Positions 23,371 to 50,578 of a DNA stretch of 53,227 nucleotides are shown here, piece by piece (within the stretch, counting starts at the first letter, position 1; every line of letters begins with the position of its first letter). The notes beneath the pieces were generated by a model, which did no database searches, was not told the DNA's origin, and was given only the letters and a program-made list of their open reading frames with translations. The stretch is from assembly GCA_014161675.1 (NCBI GenBank), contig GCA_014161675.1_4760.2; one strand, written 5' to 3'. The position numbers were made by a program, and so were the translations under genes. Source of the DNA: a phage.

Positions 23371-23423
23371 TCCTCTATTAGTTGGGCGACTCTCGCCGCC
23401 CGATTCACATCATTATACCAGAA

Positions 23424-44646: not shown

Positions 44647-44654
44647 CCACAAAC

Positions 44655-46167: not shown

Positions 46168-46398
46168 TCACGTTCTAAAGTTTGTTGCAACCCCAGCATC
46201 AGGGTAATCAAGTTTATCAAAGTTGGGGACCAGCATAAACTCATGATGACGGCAAGACAACATTTTTGTTATGTCTTCATCGCTGTATATGCTGTTTTTC
46301 ATATCCCCCATACTAACTACATATTCTTCACCGGAATATAGATTGATTAAGGTATACAATTCTAACTCCGGCTGCGTTACTCTGTCAAATGTTAACAT
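46168..46398 (-). CDS. Hypothetical protein (76 aa)
   Basis: ORF; its start overlaps the gene 46 stop. Confidence 0.4.
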   Translation of the reverse strand: MLTFDRVTQPELELYTLINLYSGEEYVVSMGDMKNSIYSDEDITKMLSCRHHEFMLVPNFDKLDYPDAGVATNFRT

Positions 46399-48082
46399 TC
46401 ATTTCAGTGAATCGCCCACGTTTAACCATCTTGAGATGACGGCTAAAATCATCAGGGTTATGGTCACGATGGCTGATAATATACACGTTATCATCTAACT
46501 TGTCAATGATGGAATCAAGTGCTTTTACGCCTTGAACGTCCGTAGCCCCATCATAAATTTCGTCGAGTACCAACAAAGAAATATTAGTACCAGATACTTT
46601 ACCAGCAACATCACGCCATGTAAAGAGCATCGCAAGGTCAATACGTGCTTTTTCGCCTTGACTGAATGATGTATACGAAAACGATTCACGCCCCCGTGAT
46701 TTGATTGTTTCGTTAAACTCTTCATCTAGCGTAAAGATATAATCCGCTTCCATGATATCAAGATAATACGCAATCCGATCATTGAAATATGGAATATATT
46801 TCTTGACGATAGACGCCTTAACACCGGAATCCTTCAACATTTCTGTTACAAATCCACGATGATATTTTTCAAGAACTAGCTTTGATTTTTCATTAGTAAT
46901 CTCTACCAGTTCGTGTTCCAGTTTAGCAAGTTCTTCGGAATTGTCAACCCTTTCTTTTTGTAATTCCTGAATTGCTTTCTGGATCTGTTTAGCCCGACCT
47001 ACAGATGCCGTTAAATTCGCTCGCTGCGACTCTATAGCGCGTTTAATTTCCAAGACCTTAGTTTGTGCTGCCTGGAAAGAATTGGCTTTCTCTGCGTATT
47101 CTACGCGTTTCTCGTCAATCAGAGACAGTTTATGTTCCGCTTGTGCCTTTTGTTCGCGTACAGCCTGATCATTACCCTGAATGATTGGTTGTGTGCACGT
47201 AGGACAGATCCCGCCTTTCTCGTGCATATGGATAACACGGTCAAAGTTCTGGATCTGCGCACCAATCTGTGCGATAGCAGTATTAATTTTAGCCAATGCT
47301 GCGCTAGGATCTTCCGGCATAACAACAGCCAATAGCTCATCGGTCAAGCGAGTTTCTTCGGCTTTAAATGCTTTAGCCGATTCCACCTCTTTATCATACA
47401 TATTCTGTAAACGCTGGAGATTCTCGGCACTCGCCTTGCTAGCGTCTTCTATGTACTTTTTATGAGTGTTGATTTGTTGCTGAACGTGATTAGCTTTCAT
47501 TTCCTGCATTTGGATATTCTGGGTAATCTCTCGCACATACGCTTTATTCAGTTTATCCATTTCGCCTAGCGTAGCAATGTCAAGCAAATCCTCGACCAGT
47601 TTACGGCGACCCGCTGCCGGAAGACTCATAAACGGAACATAACCAGCAGTGCCTAAAACAACGATCTGTTTAAAGCTGGCTAGGTTCATTCCTATGATAC
47701 CTTCAAAATATTCCTGAAAGTCTTTGGTGCTTGCGCTCTCGTCGATCTTTTGACCGTCGCGATGCACTTCGAATACTTCCGGTTTTTGACCACGTTTGAT
47801 ATAAAACTCTTTCCCGTCCAGTTCAAACCAGACTTCGACTAACAGTTTCTTTTTGTTGACGCTGTTAATCAATTGGCCTTTCTTGATACTACGAAACGGT
47901 TTACCGAACAACACAAAGCAAAGCGCCTCGATCATTGTTGATTTACCAGCACCGTTAACACCAGTGATTAGTGTCTTTTTGAATCCGTCTAGCTGAATCT
48001 CTACAGGTTCAGCACCCACGCTCATTATATTTTGATAGCGCAAGGTTTTAAAATTTAACTTTGCCATTAATCCACTCCGCAA
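46385..48082 (-). CDS. 46: Recombination endonuclease subunit gp46 (Rad50/SbcC-like ATPase)
   Basis: 565 aa; Walker A GVNGAGKST, central coiled coil with a CxxC zinc hook (CPTCTQ), C-terminal signature and Walker B (LLVLDE). Confidence 0.92.
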   Translation of the reverse strand: MRSGLMAKLNFKTLRYQNIMSVGAEPVEIQLDGFKKTLITGVNGAGKSTMIEALCFVLFGKPFRSIKKGQLINSVNKKKLLVEVWFELDGKEFYIKRGQKPEVFEVHRDGQKIDESASTKDFQEYFEGIIGMNLASFKQIVVLGTAGYVPFMSLPAAGRRKLVEDLLDIATLGEMDKLNKAYVREITQNIQMQEMKANHVQQQINTHKKYIEDASKASAENLQRLQNMYDKEVESAKAFKAEETRLTDELLAVVMPEDPSAALAKINTAIAQIGAQIQNFDRVIHMHEKGGICPTCTQPIIQGNDQAVREQKAQAEHKLSLIDEKRVEYAEKANSFQAAQTKVLEIKRAIESQRANLTASVGRAKQIQKAIQELQKERVDNSEELAKLEHELVEITNEKSKLVLEKYHRGFVTEMLKDSGVKASIVKKYIPYFNDRIAYYLDIMEADYIFTLDEEFNETIKSRGRESFSYTSFSQGEKARIDLAMLFTWRDVAGKVSGTNISLLVLDEIYDGATDVQGVKALDSIIDKLDDNVYIISHRDHNPDDFSRHLKMVKRGRFTEMNVNI

Positions 48083-48311
48083 TCACACATTCCATAATAT
48101 TAAATGCTAACACATCTTCATCAATGTTGTAAACACTTGCCGCCTTCACTTTAACTAATGTGTCTCTGCGATCTGGCAACATGATCACATAATCCAGTGT
48201 CGCAGGATCATATGTCATAAAGGGATCAACATAAATCCCTTTATTCAATGCCAGATATTCGCGAAGACCTTCTATAACCCTGTGTCTAAGGTAGGTCATC
48301 GATAGAATCAT
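48048..48311 (-). CDS. Hypothetical protein (87 aa)
   Basis: ORF in the 46-47 gap. Confidence 0.4.
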   Translation of the reverse strand: MILSMTYLRHRVIEGLREYLALNKGIYVDPFMTYDPATLDYVIMLPDRRDTLVKVKAASVYNIDEDVLAFNIMECVIAEWINGKVKF

Positions 48312-48892
48312 TTTAGTTTATGTTCCTCTAAAAATTCTTCAATTTCACCTTGCAGGTCTTCCGCTTGCTGTTCCAGAATATCGCGAAATTCACCTACAGT
48401 CAAGCGGTAATCACATTTCACCAGTCGATGTGGGAGAATATACCCTTTATACATCGTCTCTGACGCTTCCAGGAATACCCCGCTATGCATGACAGAGACC
48501 CAACCTGTTAGCGTCAATGGAGTATTAGGAAAATAATATTTGCTGGATTGTTTCCACTGGACGAAAGCACCATATACAATCGGATTATATTCACCAACCA
48601 CACTCTTAATAATGGATTCTACTTTGTCTTTTACAAAGTCGCCAATATCCATAGTTATCATCAACTCTTTTGGATTAATGATTTTAAGGTAACGACGGTA
48701 GCCGTCATCATACCACATCTTAACAACTGACCGATCAATATTCGCTTTCAGATAGCCATAGATCGGATTCTTGTAATATGATTGTTTTAGTGTGTAGGTG
48801 TGCACCAATTTAATAAAATGTTCCATTACCAACAAATCAGAATCAGCCGCGACCATAGTCGTATTCATAATATGTTCCTCGTTCAATCTCAT
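48308..48892 (-). CDS. Hypothetical protein (194 aa)
   Basis: ORF in the 46-47 gap. Confidence 0.45.
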   Translation of the reverse strand: MRLNEEHIMNTTMVAADSDLLVMEHFIKLVHTYTLKQSYYKNPIYGYLKANIDRSVVKMWYDDGYRRYLKIINPKELMITMDIGDFVKDKVESIIKSVVGEYNPIVYGAFVQWKQSSKYYFPNTPLTLTGWVSVMHSGVFLEASETMYKGYILPHRLVKCDYRLTVGEFRDILEQQAEDLQGEIEEFLEEHKLK

Positions 48893-49160
48893 ATTGTTTC
48901 AGGTCTTCTAAAAGTTCATCCACTGCTTGTTTCAGCACATGACGCAGCGTAAAGTAATAGCTTTCATCAAATTCTATTTCCGCGCGAGGAATAGAACGAA
49001 ACTTACACTTAACAGTAGTATCAGTGAGTCGCTTTTCGACCATCATCCGAACTTCTTCATGCTCTTTGGAATACCATACATCAACGGAGATCCCCTTACG
49101 TCGAGCAAACATAGGCAATGCCGCATTAAATTCCATTACCTTTTGTGCAAGTGTTTTCAT
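48843..49160 (-). CDS. Hypothetical protein (105 aa)
   Basis: ORF in the 46-47 gap; the start may be further downstream because of overlap with the upstream gene. Confidence 0.4.
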   Translation of the reverse strand: MKTLAQKVMEFNAALPMFARRKGISVDVWYSKEHEEVRMMVEKRLTDTTVKCKFRSIPRAEIEFDESYYFTLRHVLKQAVDELLEDLKQYEIERGTYYEYDYGRG

Positions 49161-49420
49161 CGTACAGACCCCATAGATCCACGCGCAATAACATTCTGGG
49201 TAATATCAGCAACCTTACGGGATACAATGTTTGTTAGCCCCTCTTTGGTGATATGTTCACGATCAAATGGGATTTCGTCATGAGTCCACAAACCATAGTT
49301 AGACCGAAATGATAGCATATACTGACCATCTCGCACAACCTCAAATACATGGATCTTAGTGAATTTCGATAAACCTTCGTTGATTTCTTTCAATGCATTA
49401 GTAATCATAACAACCTCCAA
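49157..49420 (-). CDS. Hypothetical protein (87 aa)
   Basis: ORF with GGAGG upstream and its own promoter. Confidence 0.45.
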   Translation of the reverse strand: MEVVMITNALKEINEGLSKFTKIHVFEVVRDGQYMLSFRSNYGLWTHDEIPFDREHITKEGLTNIVSRKVADITQNVIARGSMGSVR

Positions 49421-49433
49421 TCAATTTTTAGAG

Positions 49434-49462
49434 AGTATAACGGGGATTTCTCCCCGCGTCAA
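49434..49462 (-). promoter_or_regulatory. Sigma70-type promoter downstream of gene 47
   Basis: Minus strand TTGACG (49457-49462), 17-bp spacer containing the palindrome CGGGGA-GAAA-TCCCCG, TATACT (49434-49439). Confidence 0.5.
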
Positions 49463-50488
49463 CTAACTTTTTGCGCTATTTACCTCGGCTAAAAGTTCAT
49501 CAGAAATACGCTTGACCGCCGCAAGTTCTTCCGGTTCTAGGTTTTGTTCTTCCAGATATTCATAGACCATCTGAATAGTGCTTTTAACTTCAATAACACC
49601 TGTTTCCTGTGATGCGCTACTCTCCAGCTTATGGACCACTTTTAGCTTGTGTACAACGGCCTCTAACGCGCTTTCTAACTTAGTTAACCCATTATCAGCG
49701 ACCGTTGCGATAAGACGCACACTAAGCCCCTTAAAGCGTTCTACATCGATTTTATCATCTGACGGGTAAGTGATACGCACATGATAAGTTTTCTCATTCT
49801 GGATAAACTCCTTTTTGTGTGTATCGGTATCGAATACCCAAAAACCACGCGGATCGTTTTCGTCACCAGCCGTTAGTGTGTATGGTGTACCAATATACGT
49901 TACGTTACCGCCATCACTGATAGTATGAAAGTGACCAGAAAACACTTCACGGTATTTCTTGAGGAAGTCCGCGCTATAACCTTCTGATTTTAGCCCTTTA
50001 TAGAAATAGTAACCGGACAATTCCCAATGGCCTACACAATATTCGCTGAATGAGTTTTGAATAAACTCTAAAATCTCTGATTTATTGTCATCACAAAACC
50101 ACGGGAACAGATCAAATGATACACCATCAAAGGTAACTGTTTCCGGTTTATCGATAACCTTAATGCAATCATACTGGCTTAACACTTCACGCGGTGCGTT
50201 AGGCTGGATCTTATTGCGCTTAAACATATCATGATTCCCGACCGTGATATAACAAGTAATACCAGCCTCTTCCAGTAACGGAATGACCTTAGTGCGGTTA
50301 AATTTCATGGTTTCATGGGTAATTGCTTTTCGGCAATCAAACCAATCTCCTGTTTGAATCCATGTCTTAATATTATGCTCTTTGGAGTATTCAACCGCTT
50401 TCTTGATGGTATCAAGAATATACTCGTGCACCCACGGATCATCGCCACCGATACCAGTATGCAGATCACCTAAAAGCAAAATTTTCAT
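49463..50488 (-). CDS. 47: Recombination nuclease gp47 (Mre11/SbcD-like)
   Basis: 341 aa; calcineurin-like phosphoesterase motifs (LLLGDLHTG, QTGDWFD, GNHD, GHFH). Confidence 0.92.
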   Translation of the reverse strand: MKILLLGDLHTGIGGDDPWVHEYILDTIKKAVEYSKEHNIKTWIQTGDWFDCRKAITHETMKFNRTKVIPLLEEAGITCYITVGNHDMFKRNKIQPNAPREVLSQYDCIKVIDKPETVTFDGVSFDLFPWFCDDNKSEILEFIQNSFSEYCVGHWELSGYYFYKGLKSEGYSADFLKKYREVFSGHFHTISDGGNVTYIGTPYTLTAGDENDPRGFWVFDTDTHKKEFIQNEKTYHVRITYPSDDKIDVERFKGLSVRLIATVADNGLTKLESALEAVVHKLKVVHKLESSASQETGVIEVKSTIQMVYEYLEEQNLEPEELAAVKRISDELLAEVNSAKS

Positions 50489-50532
50489 AGTCTCTTCCTC
50501 TCTTCGTTTTCGATGCTCTCACTATATCACAG

Positions 50533-50560
50533 AAAAATAAAAAGGGAAACCCTTTTCAGA
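50533..50560 (-). terminator. Rho-independent terminator upstream of gene 47
   Basis: Minus strand GAAAAGGG-TTTC-CCTTTTT followed by ATTTTTCT. Confidence 0.7.
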
Positions 50561-50578
50561 GTCTCCCTTATAAAGCCA

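Follow-up and report, generated by a model that had tools for sequence, protein, structure and literature searches.

The subject of this study is a block of four small open reading frames (ORFs) lying between the recombination genes 47 and 46 in a phage DNA stretch of 53,227 nucleotides (NCBI GenBank assembly GCA_014161675.1, contig GCA_014161675.1_4760.2), which in its whole length is referred to below as the window. Our analysis indicates that this block is probably a cassette of early, lineage-specific accessory genes, which is headed by a promoter-early stem-loop (PeSL) element and is located in a variable slot between genes 47 and 46. The window belongs to Krischvirus (RB49-like T4-type coliphages) and is 97–99% identical to RB49 and its relatives. 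The 4.1-kb stretch extending from gene 46 to gene 47 has full-length matches of 90–99% identity in 59 phage records, all of them from Krischvirus, the closest being vB_EcoM_G5211 and FL04 (98.7%), with RB49 at 97.4%. The locus is an ordinary and already annotated Krischvirus feature: in the RB49 record of GenBank the interval reads gene 47, RB49ORF038c, 037c, 036c, 035c and gene 46, with the four ORFs entered as 'hypothetical protein', and in the GEC-3S record a promoter with -35 and -10 signals is annotated in the gap between gene 47 and ORF038c. The RB49 names are used here for the corresponding ORFs of the window.

The promoter and stem-loop element upstream of ORF038c

The element lies on the minus strand, which carries every gene of the region, at positions 49434–49462, within the 54-nt intergenic gap between gene 47 and ORF038c. 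It consists of a -35 hexamer TTGACG (49462–49457), which is abutted by the TAG stop codon of gene 47, a 17-nt spacer, and a -10 hexamer TATACT (49439–49434), and it scored 10 of 12 in a consensus scan. Within the spacer, a hairpin scan identified the stem-loop CGGGGA-GAAA-TCCCCG (49441–49456, minus strand), which has a perfect 6-bp stem and a 4-nt loop and was recovered in both the minimum-energy and the centroid RNA folds (-16.9 kcal/mol for a 66-nt context, z = -2.1). A Shine-Dalgarno sequence, GGAGG (49414–49418, minus strand, as read from the sequence), follows the -10 hexamer at 15 nt and is located 5 nt before the ATG of ORF038c, which itself lies 25 nt after the hexamer. A consensus scan alone is weak evidence, as it found 41 sites against 24.6 expected. 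This site is credible because it occupies an intergenic position on the coding strand, because the 51 nt around the promoter and hairpin are conserved (at least 99% identity in 47 of the 59 Krischvirus records and 95–99% in the other 12), and because the strong sigma70-like sites of the window are biased towards the coding strand (48 of 56). Additionally, the core of the element is identical in seven related loci, and at the matching position of two diverged metagenome contigs, L013 and L008, which are described below, the promoter scores 11/12 and 12/12, respectively. A sigma70-type promoter with a palindromic spacer, as given for this site in the original prediction, is thus borne out by the score, the perfect stem and the conservation.

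The palindromic spacer had been singled out as an oddity, but it is not new, being the defining trait of the PeSL elements described in RB49 and phi1 (PMC2839356). This class was defined on these two phages in 2010, with about 50 elements per genome (Arbiol et al., PMC2839356). In its general layout, an upstream stop codon is followed by a near-consensus sigma70 promoter with a G-run/C-run stem-loop and then by the Shine-Dalgarno sequence of an ORFan, and a stem-loop between the -35 and -10 hexamers characterizes one of the two commonest subclasses (PMC2839356). PeSLs are found preferentially upstream of ORFans, including a few PeSLs inside core modules (PMC2839356; PMC4122927), and in the proposal of Arbiol et al., PeSLs recombine with one another and thereby shuffle the ORFans that they flank (PMC2839356). 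One PeSL has been reported to show strong promoter activity, and the stem-loop of another to act in a terminator-like manner, activity having been demonstrated only for PeSL193/192, 206/205, and 211/210 (PMC2839356). The PeSL idea was later extended to T4/PST and KVP40/nt-1 (Comeau et al., 2014; PMC4122927).

The element in the window resembles the PeSLs of RB49 and phi1 in its near-consensus hexamers with a 17-nt spacer, in the G/C stem-loop between them, in its position directly after an upstream stop codon, in being present in more than one copy per genome, and in being linked to indels and allele exchange among phages that are related. Together with its intergenic location before an ORFan, these features indicate that the element, judged at the level of the sequence, is a PeSL. 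Unlike most PeSLs of RB49 and phi1, it is sited in a conserved replication/recombination module and not in a hyperplastic region, a location for which the authors allow 'a few' cases, and unlike PeSL193/192, 206/205, and 211/210 of Arbiol et al., it is known from its sequence.

The 51-nt core of the element has about two matches per genome (120 places in 59 genomes). In RB49, a twin of the element, TTGACG-CGGGGAGAAATCCCCGC-TATAAT, which is identical in 27 of the 28 nt of the core, lies right after the nrdA stop codon and before ORF233c, outside the window (AY343333.1, 134523–134550; locus L141, 20505–20532, minus strand). The arrangement nrdA–PeSL–ORF233c/232c/231c–nrdB is similar to that of the 47/46 locus in that a PeSL follows a core gene and a run of ORFans parts the genes for two enzyme subunits. 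It differs in that the ORFans between nrdA and nrdB are unrelated to those of the block and shorter (55–57 aa), and in the -10 box of the twin, which is a perfect TATAAT. A 14-mer scan of IMG/VR with the hairpin gave unrelated contigs among the matches listed. Elsewhere in the window, sites combining a promoter with a G/C hairpin were observed at about 44650, 26768, 26399, and 18025. Perfect G/C-rich hairpins located in intergenic positions of the minus strand, near or overlapping strong sigma70-like promoters, are found at 44648–44629, 38573–38557, 26768–26741, and 26399–26371, with further such minus-strand hairpins at 23401–23384, 18025–17997, 11108–11088, 8238–8221, and 401–384. The other promoter-hairpin sites of the window are probably further PeSLs of other subclasses.

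In regard to expression, no terminator-like site was found when the minus strand was scanned from 49433 to 48067, and no late-promoter motif was detected between the PeSL and gene 46, where the other promoter-like sites are weak (9–10 of 12). As there is no terminator-like site and the genes overlap one another (see below), the same promoter probably feeds gene 46, for which the PeSL would probably be the nearest strong promoter too. The promoter had originally been described as the block's own; it does head the block, but in view of the overlaps leading into gene 46 and the lack of a terminator-like site in between, it is not private to it. RB49-type phages are without MotA and middle promoters, and sigma70-type early promoters carry their pre-late expression (PMC1524935). 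We suggest that the near-consensus -35 and -10 hexamers would recruit the sigma70 RNA polymerase of the host early in infection, that the new transcript would begin about 20 nt upstream of ORF038c, and that a single early transcript would cover ORF038c, ORF037c, ORF036c, ORF035c, and gene 46, in keeping with the gene architecture that is directly visible. The G/C hairpin would form only in RNA that is read through from gene 47, just past the stop codon of this gene, the A/U-rich -10 box forming its tail, and by analogy with another PeSL of RB49/phi1 that has been tested, it may attenuate or cap the gene 47 read-through transcript. The PeSL probably also marks a recombination boundary, at which alleles of the first gene have been swapped.

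Conservation and divergence of the four ORFs

The mechanical ORF list contains, on the minus strand between the flanking genes, ORFs of 87 aa (48048–48311), 194 aa (48308–48892), 105 aa (48843–49160), and 87 aa (49157–49420), and it thus reproduces the four ORFs of the original prediction at the same coordinates. The lengths of the 105-aa ORF and of the 87-aa ORF next to gene 46 stand, whereas conserved starts and ribosome-binding sites shorten the 194-aa ORF to 186 aa and the 87-aa ORF distal to gene 46 to 83 aa. For the 194-aa ORF, the most likely start is the ninth codon (ATG at 48868), which follows a GAGGAA ribosome-binding site, and the TTG start listed for the distal 87-aa ORF falls within GGAGG, the ribosome-binding site that serves the ATG at 49408. 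The RB49 annotation agrees with the 186- and 83-aa forms, as do the ranges covered by the PHROG profiles and the positions at which diverged homologues start. The block, which lies entirely on the minus strand, consists of the homologues of ORF038c (83 aa, 49157–49408; PHROG 15867, covering residues 5–87 of the long form), ORF037c (105 aa, 48843–49160; PHROG 15856), ORF036c (186 aa, 48308–48868), and ORF035c (87 aa, 48048–48311; PHROG 14972). A Shine-Dalgarno-like sequence precedes each of the four starts. The stop and start codons of ORF038c/037c and of ORF036c/035c overlap as ATGA, ORF037c and ORF036c share 26 nt, and ORF035c overlaps gene 46 by 20 nt. All four are small proteins, near-neutral to acidic in character (predicted isoelectric points of 5.2–8.1).

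In tblastn searches, all four ORFs were found in each of the 59 Krischvirus records and none of them in any non-Krischvirus record among 50,697 phage records. The same genes are thus present at this position throughout the group, but no core function is assigned to any of them. The ratios of nonsynonymous to synonymous substitution rates (dN/dS), which were determined pairwise against seven related loci, were 0.01–0.03 for gene 46 and 0.01–0.09 for gene 47 (the latter from full-length comparisons), as compared with 0–0.17 for ORF035c, 0–0.26 for ORF037c, 0.14–0.29 for ORF038c, and 0.04–0.42 for ORF036c. Based upon these values, the four ORFs are real genes under purifying selection, with a looser constraint than that on the flanking genes, and they are evolving several times faster.

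The divergence is not evenly distributed over the block. ORF038c is its most mosaic gene within the genus, with an allele of 60–80% identity in 13 of the 59 genomes, and ORF035c is 94–100% identical across all 59 records. In comparison with two loci of the genus (L005 and L006), the number of mismatches rises right downstream of the PeSL from 2–5 to about 20 per 100 nt and remains so across ORF038c; it is about 10 per 100 nt across the N-terminal half of ORF036c and 0–8 per 100 nt in the C-terminal half of ORF036c, in ORF035c, and in gene 46. The G+C content of the block is 39.2%, versus 40.7% for the window, and both its base composition and the G+C content at third codon positions (GC3) are as in the flanks, which argues against a recent import. 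The idea that the block was recently inserted is not upheld by these results, as its G+C content matches the flanks, it is fixed genus-wide, and diverged versions of it exist in two further lineages.

These diverged versions were found through ORF036c. A word-indexed search of 5.8 billion proteins gave only close copies of this protein, and an exhaustive search with HMMER, covering 1.84 billion representatives, added P0007 (176 aa) and P0008 (99 aa) as true but distant relatives, which are encoded on short metagenome contigs (L008, from SRR8048117, and L013, from ERZ27254724) showing the same locus. In L008, gp47 and gp46 are each 88% identical to those of the window, and the PeSL combines a perfect-consensus promoter with another 6-bp stem (GGGGGA-TAGT-TCCCCC). 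Behind it come a first ORF of 84 aa with no similarity to ORF038c, an ORF037c homologue of 107 aa (50% identity), and an ORF036c homologue of 176 aa (38%); ORF035c has no homologue, its place being taken by a short spacer that contains a -35 box and a stem-loop. In L013, gp47 is 81% identical to that of the window and gene 46 is off the contig. Its PeSL contains the stem-loop of the window with a -35 hexamer TTGACA, and is followed by a first ORF of 94 aa that is weakly similar to the one in L008 and shows no detectable similarity to ORF038c, an ORF037c homologue of 105 aa (46%), two ORFs (86 and 99 aa) corresponding to ORF036c, whose C-terminal half is 44% identical, and an ORF035c homologue with 24% identity (E 2e-5). 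Between the lineages the flanking proteins are thus 81–88% identical, whereas the proteins of the block are 24–50% identical, replaced or lost. The presence of diverged versions at the same locus indicates that the block is older than the genus, and it has kept its place and order while diverging far faster than its flanks. When IMG/VR and JGI metagenome contigs were searched for further diverged copies of the block, only close relatives of Krischvirus were found.

Some details of these contigs may also be recorded. The nucleotide stretch of the block that is best conserved across the three lineages is the 26 nt shared by ORF037c, at its end (…YDYGRG), and ORF036c, at its start (MN/T-x-TM…) (48843–48868 in the window, 1287–1312 in L008, and 864–889 in L013), as is expected for a doubly coding segment, and the C-terminal YDYGRG of ORF037c is kept in all three of them. 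In L013 (864–1413), two overlapping ORFs take the place of a single ORF036c homologue, with the break falling exactly at the predicted domain boundary of the protein, which could represent either a true gene fission or a frameshift of the assembly. In the spacer before gene 46 of L008 (1805–1870), a TTGACA box lies over the stop codon and is accompanied by a stem of 6 bp (ATCCCC...GGGGAT) that closes a 16-nt loop, but there is no good -10 box. From its sequence, this site looks like a degraded ('half') PeSL as described by Comeau et al. (2014; PMC4122927).

The 47–46 slot and alternative explanations for the block

The content of the interval between genes 47 and 46 differs among T4-like genera. 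Nothing is present there in CC31 (Karamvirus) and KP1079 (Jiaodavirus), whereas T4 contains genes 46.2 and 46.1, Vibrio phage CZ01 two ORFs, and Lw1 (Pseudotevenvirus), Aeromonas phage Assk, and Synechococcus phage Syn19 one ORF each. Similar to the ORFs of the block, those of T4, Lw1, Assk, CZ01, and Syn19 are small (65–91 aa), occupy exactly the same slot, and overlap or abut genes 47 and 46. Unlike the block, the T4 ORFs are without an intergenic promoter, as 46.2 overlaps gene 47, and the Krischvirus block, with four genes and 1.4 kb, is larger than the slot content of the other genera. No relation of the slot ORFs of other genera to the Krischvirus ORFs or to each other was detected by BLAST or profile-profile comparisons, and no probability exceeded 3% in the profile-profile tests, which took in the four ORFs, both domains of ORF036c, and the ORFs from the slots of other genera and gave no indication of paralogy. 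On the basis of these gene orders and sequences, this position is a recurrent small variable slot within a conserved replication/recombination module. A comparison of the 46–47 interval across related genomes thus makes 'accessory', the term first applied to the block, a reasonable label, as the slot content varies between genera and its fillers are unrelated.

The flanking genes were identified at the outset as encoding the two subunits of one nuclease, here parted by about 1.4 kb, and these assignments are confirmed by PHROG and Pfam. Gene 47 (49463–50488, minus strand, 341 aa) encodes the SbcD/Mre11-like nuclease subunit (PHROG 100, E 9e-125; Pfam Metallophos; gene 47 of RB49). Gene 46 encodes the SbcC/Rad50-like ATPase subunit (PHROG 77, E 2e-179; Pfam AAA_23 and SMC_N) and extends on the minus strand over 46385–48067, with 560 aa from the ATG at 48067; its length in the RB49 annotation is 1683 nt, and in the mechanical ORF list it runs over 46385–48082. 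As in T4 gp46/gp47 (Rad50/Mre11, SbcCD-like), the product of gene 47 is a calcineurin-like metallophosphoesterase and that of gene 46 an SMC/ABC-type ATPase with a long coiled-coil insert. Upstream of gene 47, the window has a 90-nt gap (50489–50578) with a strong terminator-like hairpin and a T-run (50569–50542, minus strand). In RB49 an HNH-AP2 homing-endonuclease gene (ORF040c, 555 nt) lies between a-gt.4 and gene 47; it is absent from the window and from GEC-3S.

A number of observations weigh against the interpretation of the block as a PeSL-headed cassette of early accessory genes. The tail of the hairpin (UUAUACUC), with four T in eight nucleotides, does not form a canonical U-tract, and the site was not scored as terminator-like in the scan. 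The AT-rich stretch that is typically located upstream of PeSLs corresponds here to the coding 3' end of gene 47 (…GCGCAAAAAGTTAG), which is moderately AT-rich and contains an A-run, and there is no free AT-rich spacer. We infer promoter and attenuator activity at this site from its sequence and from the experiments on other PeSLs. Further, g46 was stated by Arbiol et al. to be 'not bordered by PeSL sequences' and served as their negative control (PMC2839356), so that either the PeSL described here was not counted as flanking g46, or a PeSL is present on one side of the block only. Lastly, conservation of the block in 59 of 59 genomes fits equally well with a role that is essential in this lineage, and the searches for function (Pfam, NCBIfam, PADLOC, PHROGs, PDB sequences, and fold) were all uninformative.

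Other explanations for the block have also been considered. It could be a recently acquired mobile insertion, brought in by a homing endonuclease or as a PeSL mini-circle and consisting of neutral cargo. PeSL-flanked ORFans can indeed excise as mini-circles in RB49 and phi1 (PMC2839356), the HNH-AP2 gene of RB49 is located immediately upstream of gene 47, and the remnant of a -35 box and stem-loop in L008 lies directly before gene 46, where ORF035c is missing. However, the base composition and GC3 of the block equal those of its flanks, it is fixed in all 59 genomes and older than the genus, and all four of its ORFs are under purifying selection. Moreover, no endonuclease, integrase or transposase domain was detected in or beside it by Pfam, NCBIfam, and PADLOC (the sole hint being an 'HEase' match with E 0.042), and as within the window the PeSL borders the block on the gene 47 side only, there are no direct PeSL repeats for excision and the formation of a mini-circle is not expected here. 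This explanation is thus largely refuted, and we consider it very improbable. The lack of a database function for any of the ORFs, and of any motif on their first reading, might also suggest that some of them are chance open frames in a long 47–46 spacer. Yet every ORF has a dN/dS well under 1, a Shine-Dalgarno-like sequence at its start, and a PHROG family of its own, the diverged homologues of ORF037c, ORF036c, and ORF035c keep their order, and a confident structure prediction was obtained for ORF036c from the three-lineage alignment. On present evidence the chance-frame explanation is rejected, its probability being close to nil.

The location of the block raises a different possibility, namely that the four proteins serve the gp46/gp47 nuclease as lineage-specific cofactors or regulators, and that their genes are kept between those of its two subunits, in translational coupling to gene 46, so that the complex is produced in fixed proportions. 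This would account for the overlaps that chain the genes into gene 46 and for the presence of the block in all 59 genomes, and it is consistent with the observations that homologues of ORF037c and ORF036c hold the slot in two further lineages despite 50–64% divergence and that many T4-like genera keep a small ORF in exactly this place. On the other hand, the slot fillers of different genera show no detectable similarity, and the slots of CC31 and KP1079 are empty. In L008 the first ORF has been replaced and ORF035c lost, although gp46 and gp47 are 88% identical to those of the window, and the dN/dS values of the ORFs are 5–20 times those of gp46/gp47, a difference not usually seen between a slowly evolving complex and its obligate partners. 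Additionally, the twin PeSL of RB49 heads an unrelated run of ORFans between nrdA and nrdB, which suggests that PeSL cassettes tend to settle between paired core genes whatever the role of these genes. Such a dedicated function in the nuclease complex is in our view unlikely, and an accessory cassette of early genes under a PeSL is the reading that we prefer.

Predicted properties of the proteins and implications

Scans of the four ORFs and of their diverged homologues with Pfam, NCBIfam, PADLOC, and PHROG profiles yielded only PHROGs of unknown function and sub-threshold noise, in agreement with the original remark that none of these ORFs contains a recognizable motif. Searches against PDB sequences gave nothing beyond a weak match of ORF037c to the anti-CRISPR protein AcrIIC3. 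The match had an E value of 0.031 over 37 residues with the single sequence, and no match at E ≤ 10 was obtained once the 50%-identical homologue had been built into a profile; the similarity was therefore put down to chance. For the 194-aa protein (ORF036c), profile and structure searches had been proposed, and these produced a confident fold model but neither a function nor a significant structural relative. With its two distant homologues added to the alignment, the model of ORF036c has a mean predicted local distance difference test score (pLDDT) of 88.7 and a predicted template modelling score (pTM) of 0.75, whereas the pLDDT was 38 when only five near-identical sequences were used. The protein is predicted to consist of two tandem domains (about residues 1–91 and 96–186), each with a helix, a three-stranded sheet and a helix, and to end in an acidic C-terminal helix. 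Its N-terminal half is variable and its C-terminal half nearly invariant. ORF036c would join a conserved C-terminal domain to a variable N-terminal one. Foldseek searches with this model found nothing significant in PDB and only the protein itself in BFVD. The class I type III secretion chaperones (CesT/SycT/ExsC fold) may be listed as a structural analogue of its domains. Two repeat proteins, P0009 and P0010, which the exhaustive HMMER search also matched to ORF036c with E values of 1e-14 and 5e-10, were not accepted as relatives, as individual repeats reach about 20–28 bits with 29% identity and the totals are sums over 8–13 repeats; these matches are probably an artefact of summed repeat scores. 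Both are large cell-surface proteins with a repeat unit of about 75 aa, and the alignment of each repeat spans the whole N-terminal domain of ORF036c.

From the model we conclude that ORF036c is likely a generic alpha/beta module without a catalytic signature. Considering their gene class and evolutionary rate, the four proteins might, with low confidence, be small, stoichiometric, non-enzymatic binding proteins that are made early and act in host takeover or counter-defence. A more specific proposal, to which we assign little probability, is that ORF037c and ORF036c, together with ORF035c, form a fast-evolving DNA-end-processing module, which would either tune or shield the Mre11/Rad50-like nuclease of the phage or block an end-processing or defence nuclease of the host. 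If this were true, ORF036c would follow a variable partner with its variable N-terminal domain and dock on a conserved one with its invariant C-terminal domain and acidic helix, and the link of the block to gene 46 would be functional and not merely positional.

As a discovery the locus carries little weight, since its ORFs and promoter are already annotated and the promoter-hairpin design was described, and partly tested, in 2010. It would gain in interest if any of its proteins modulated Mre11/Rad50-type nucleases or host defence, and for ORF036c a confident two-domain model and two distant homologues are now available to guide experiments. The PeSL is probably the promoter proximal to the essential gene 46, which would account for the fixation of an 'accessory' cassette in the genus, and the PeSL core that is shared between the 47/46 and nrdA/nrdB loci hints that cassettes of this type settle in places that tolerate read-through into the partner gene.

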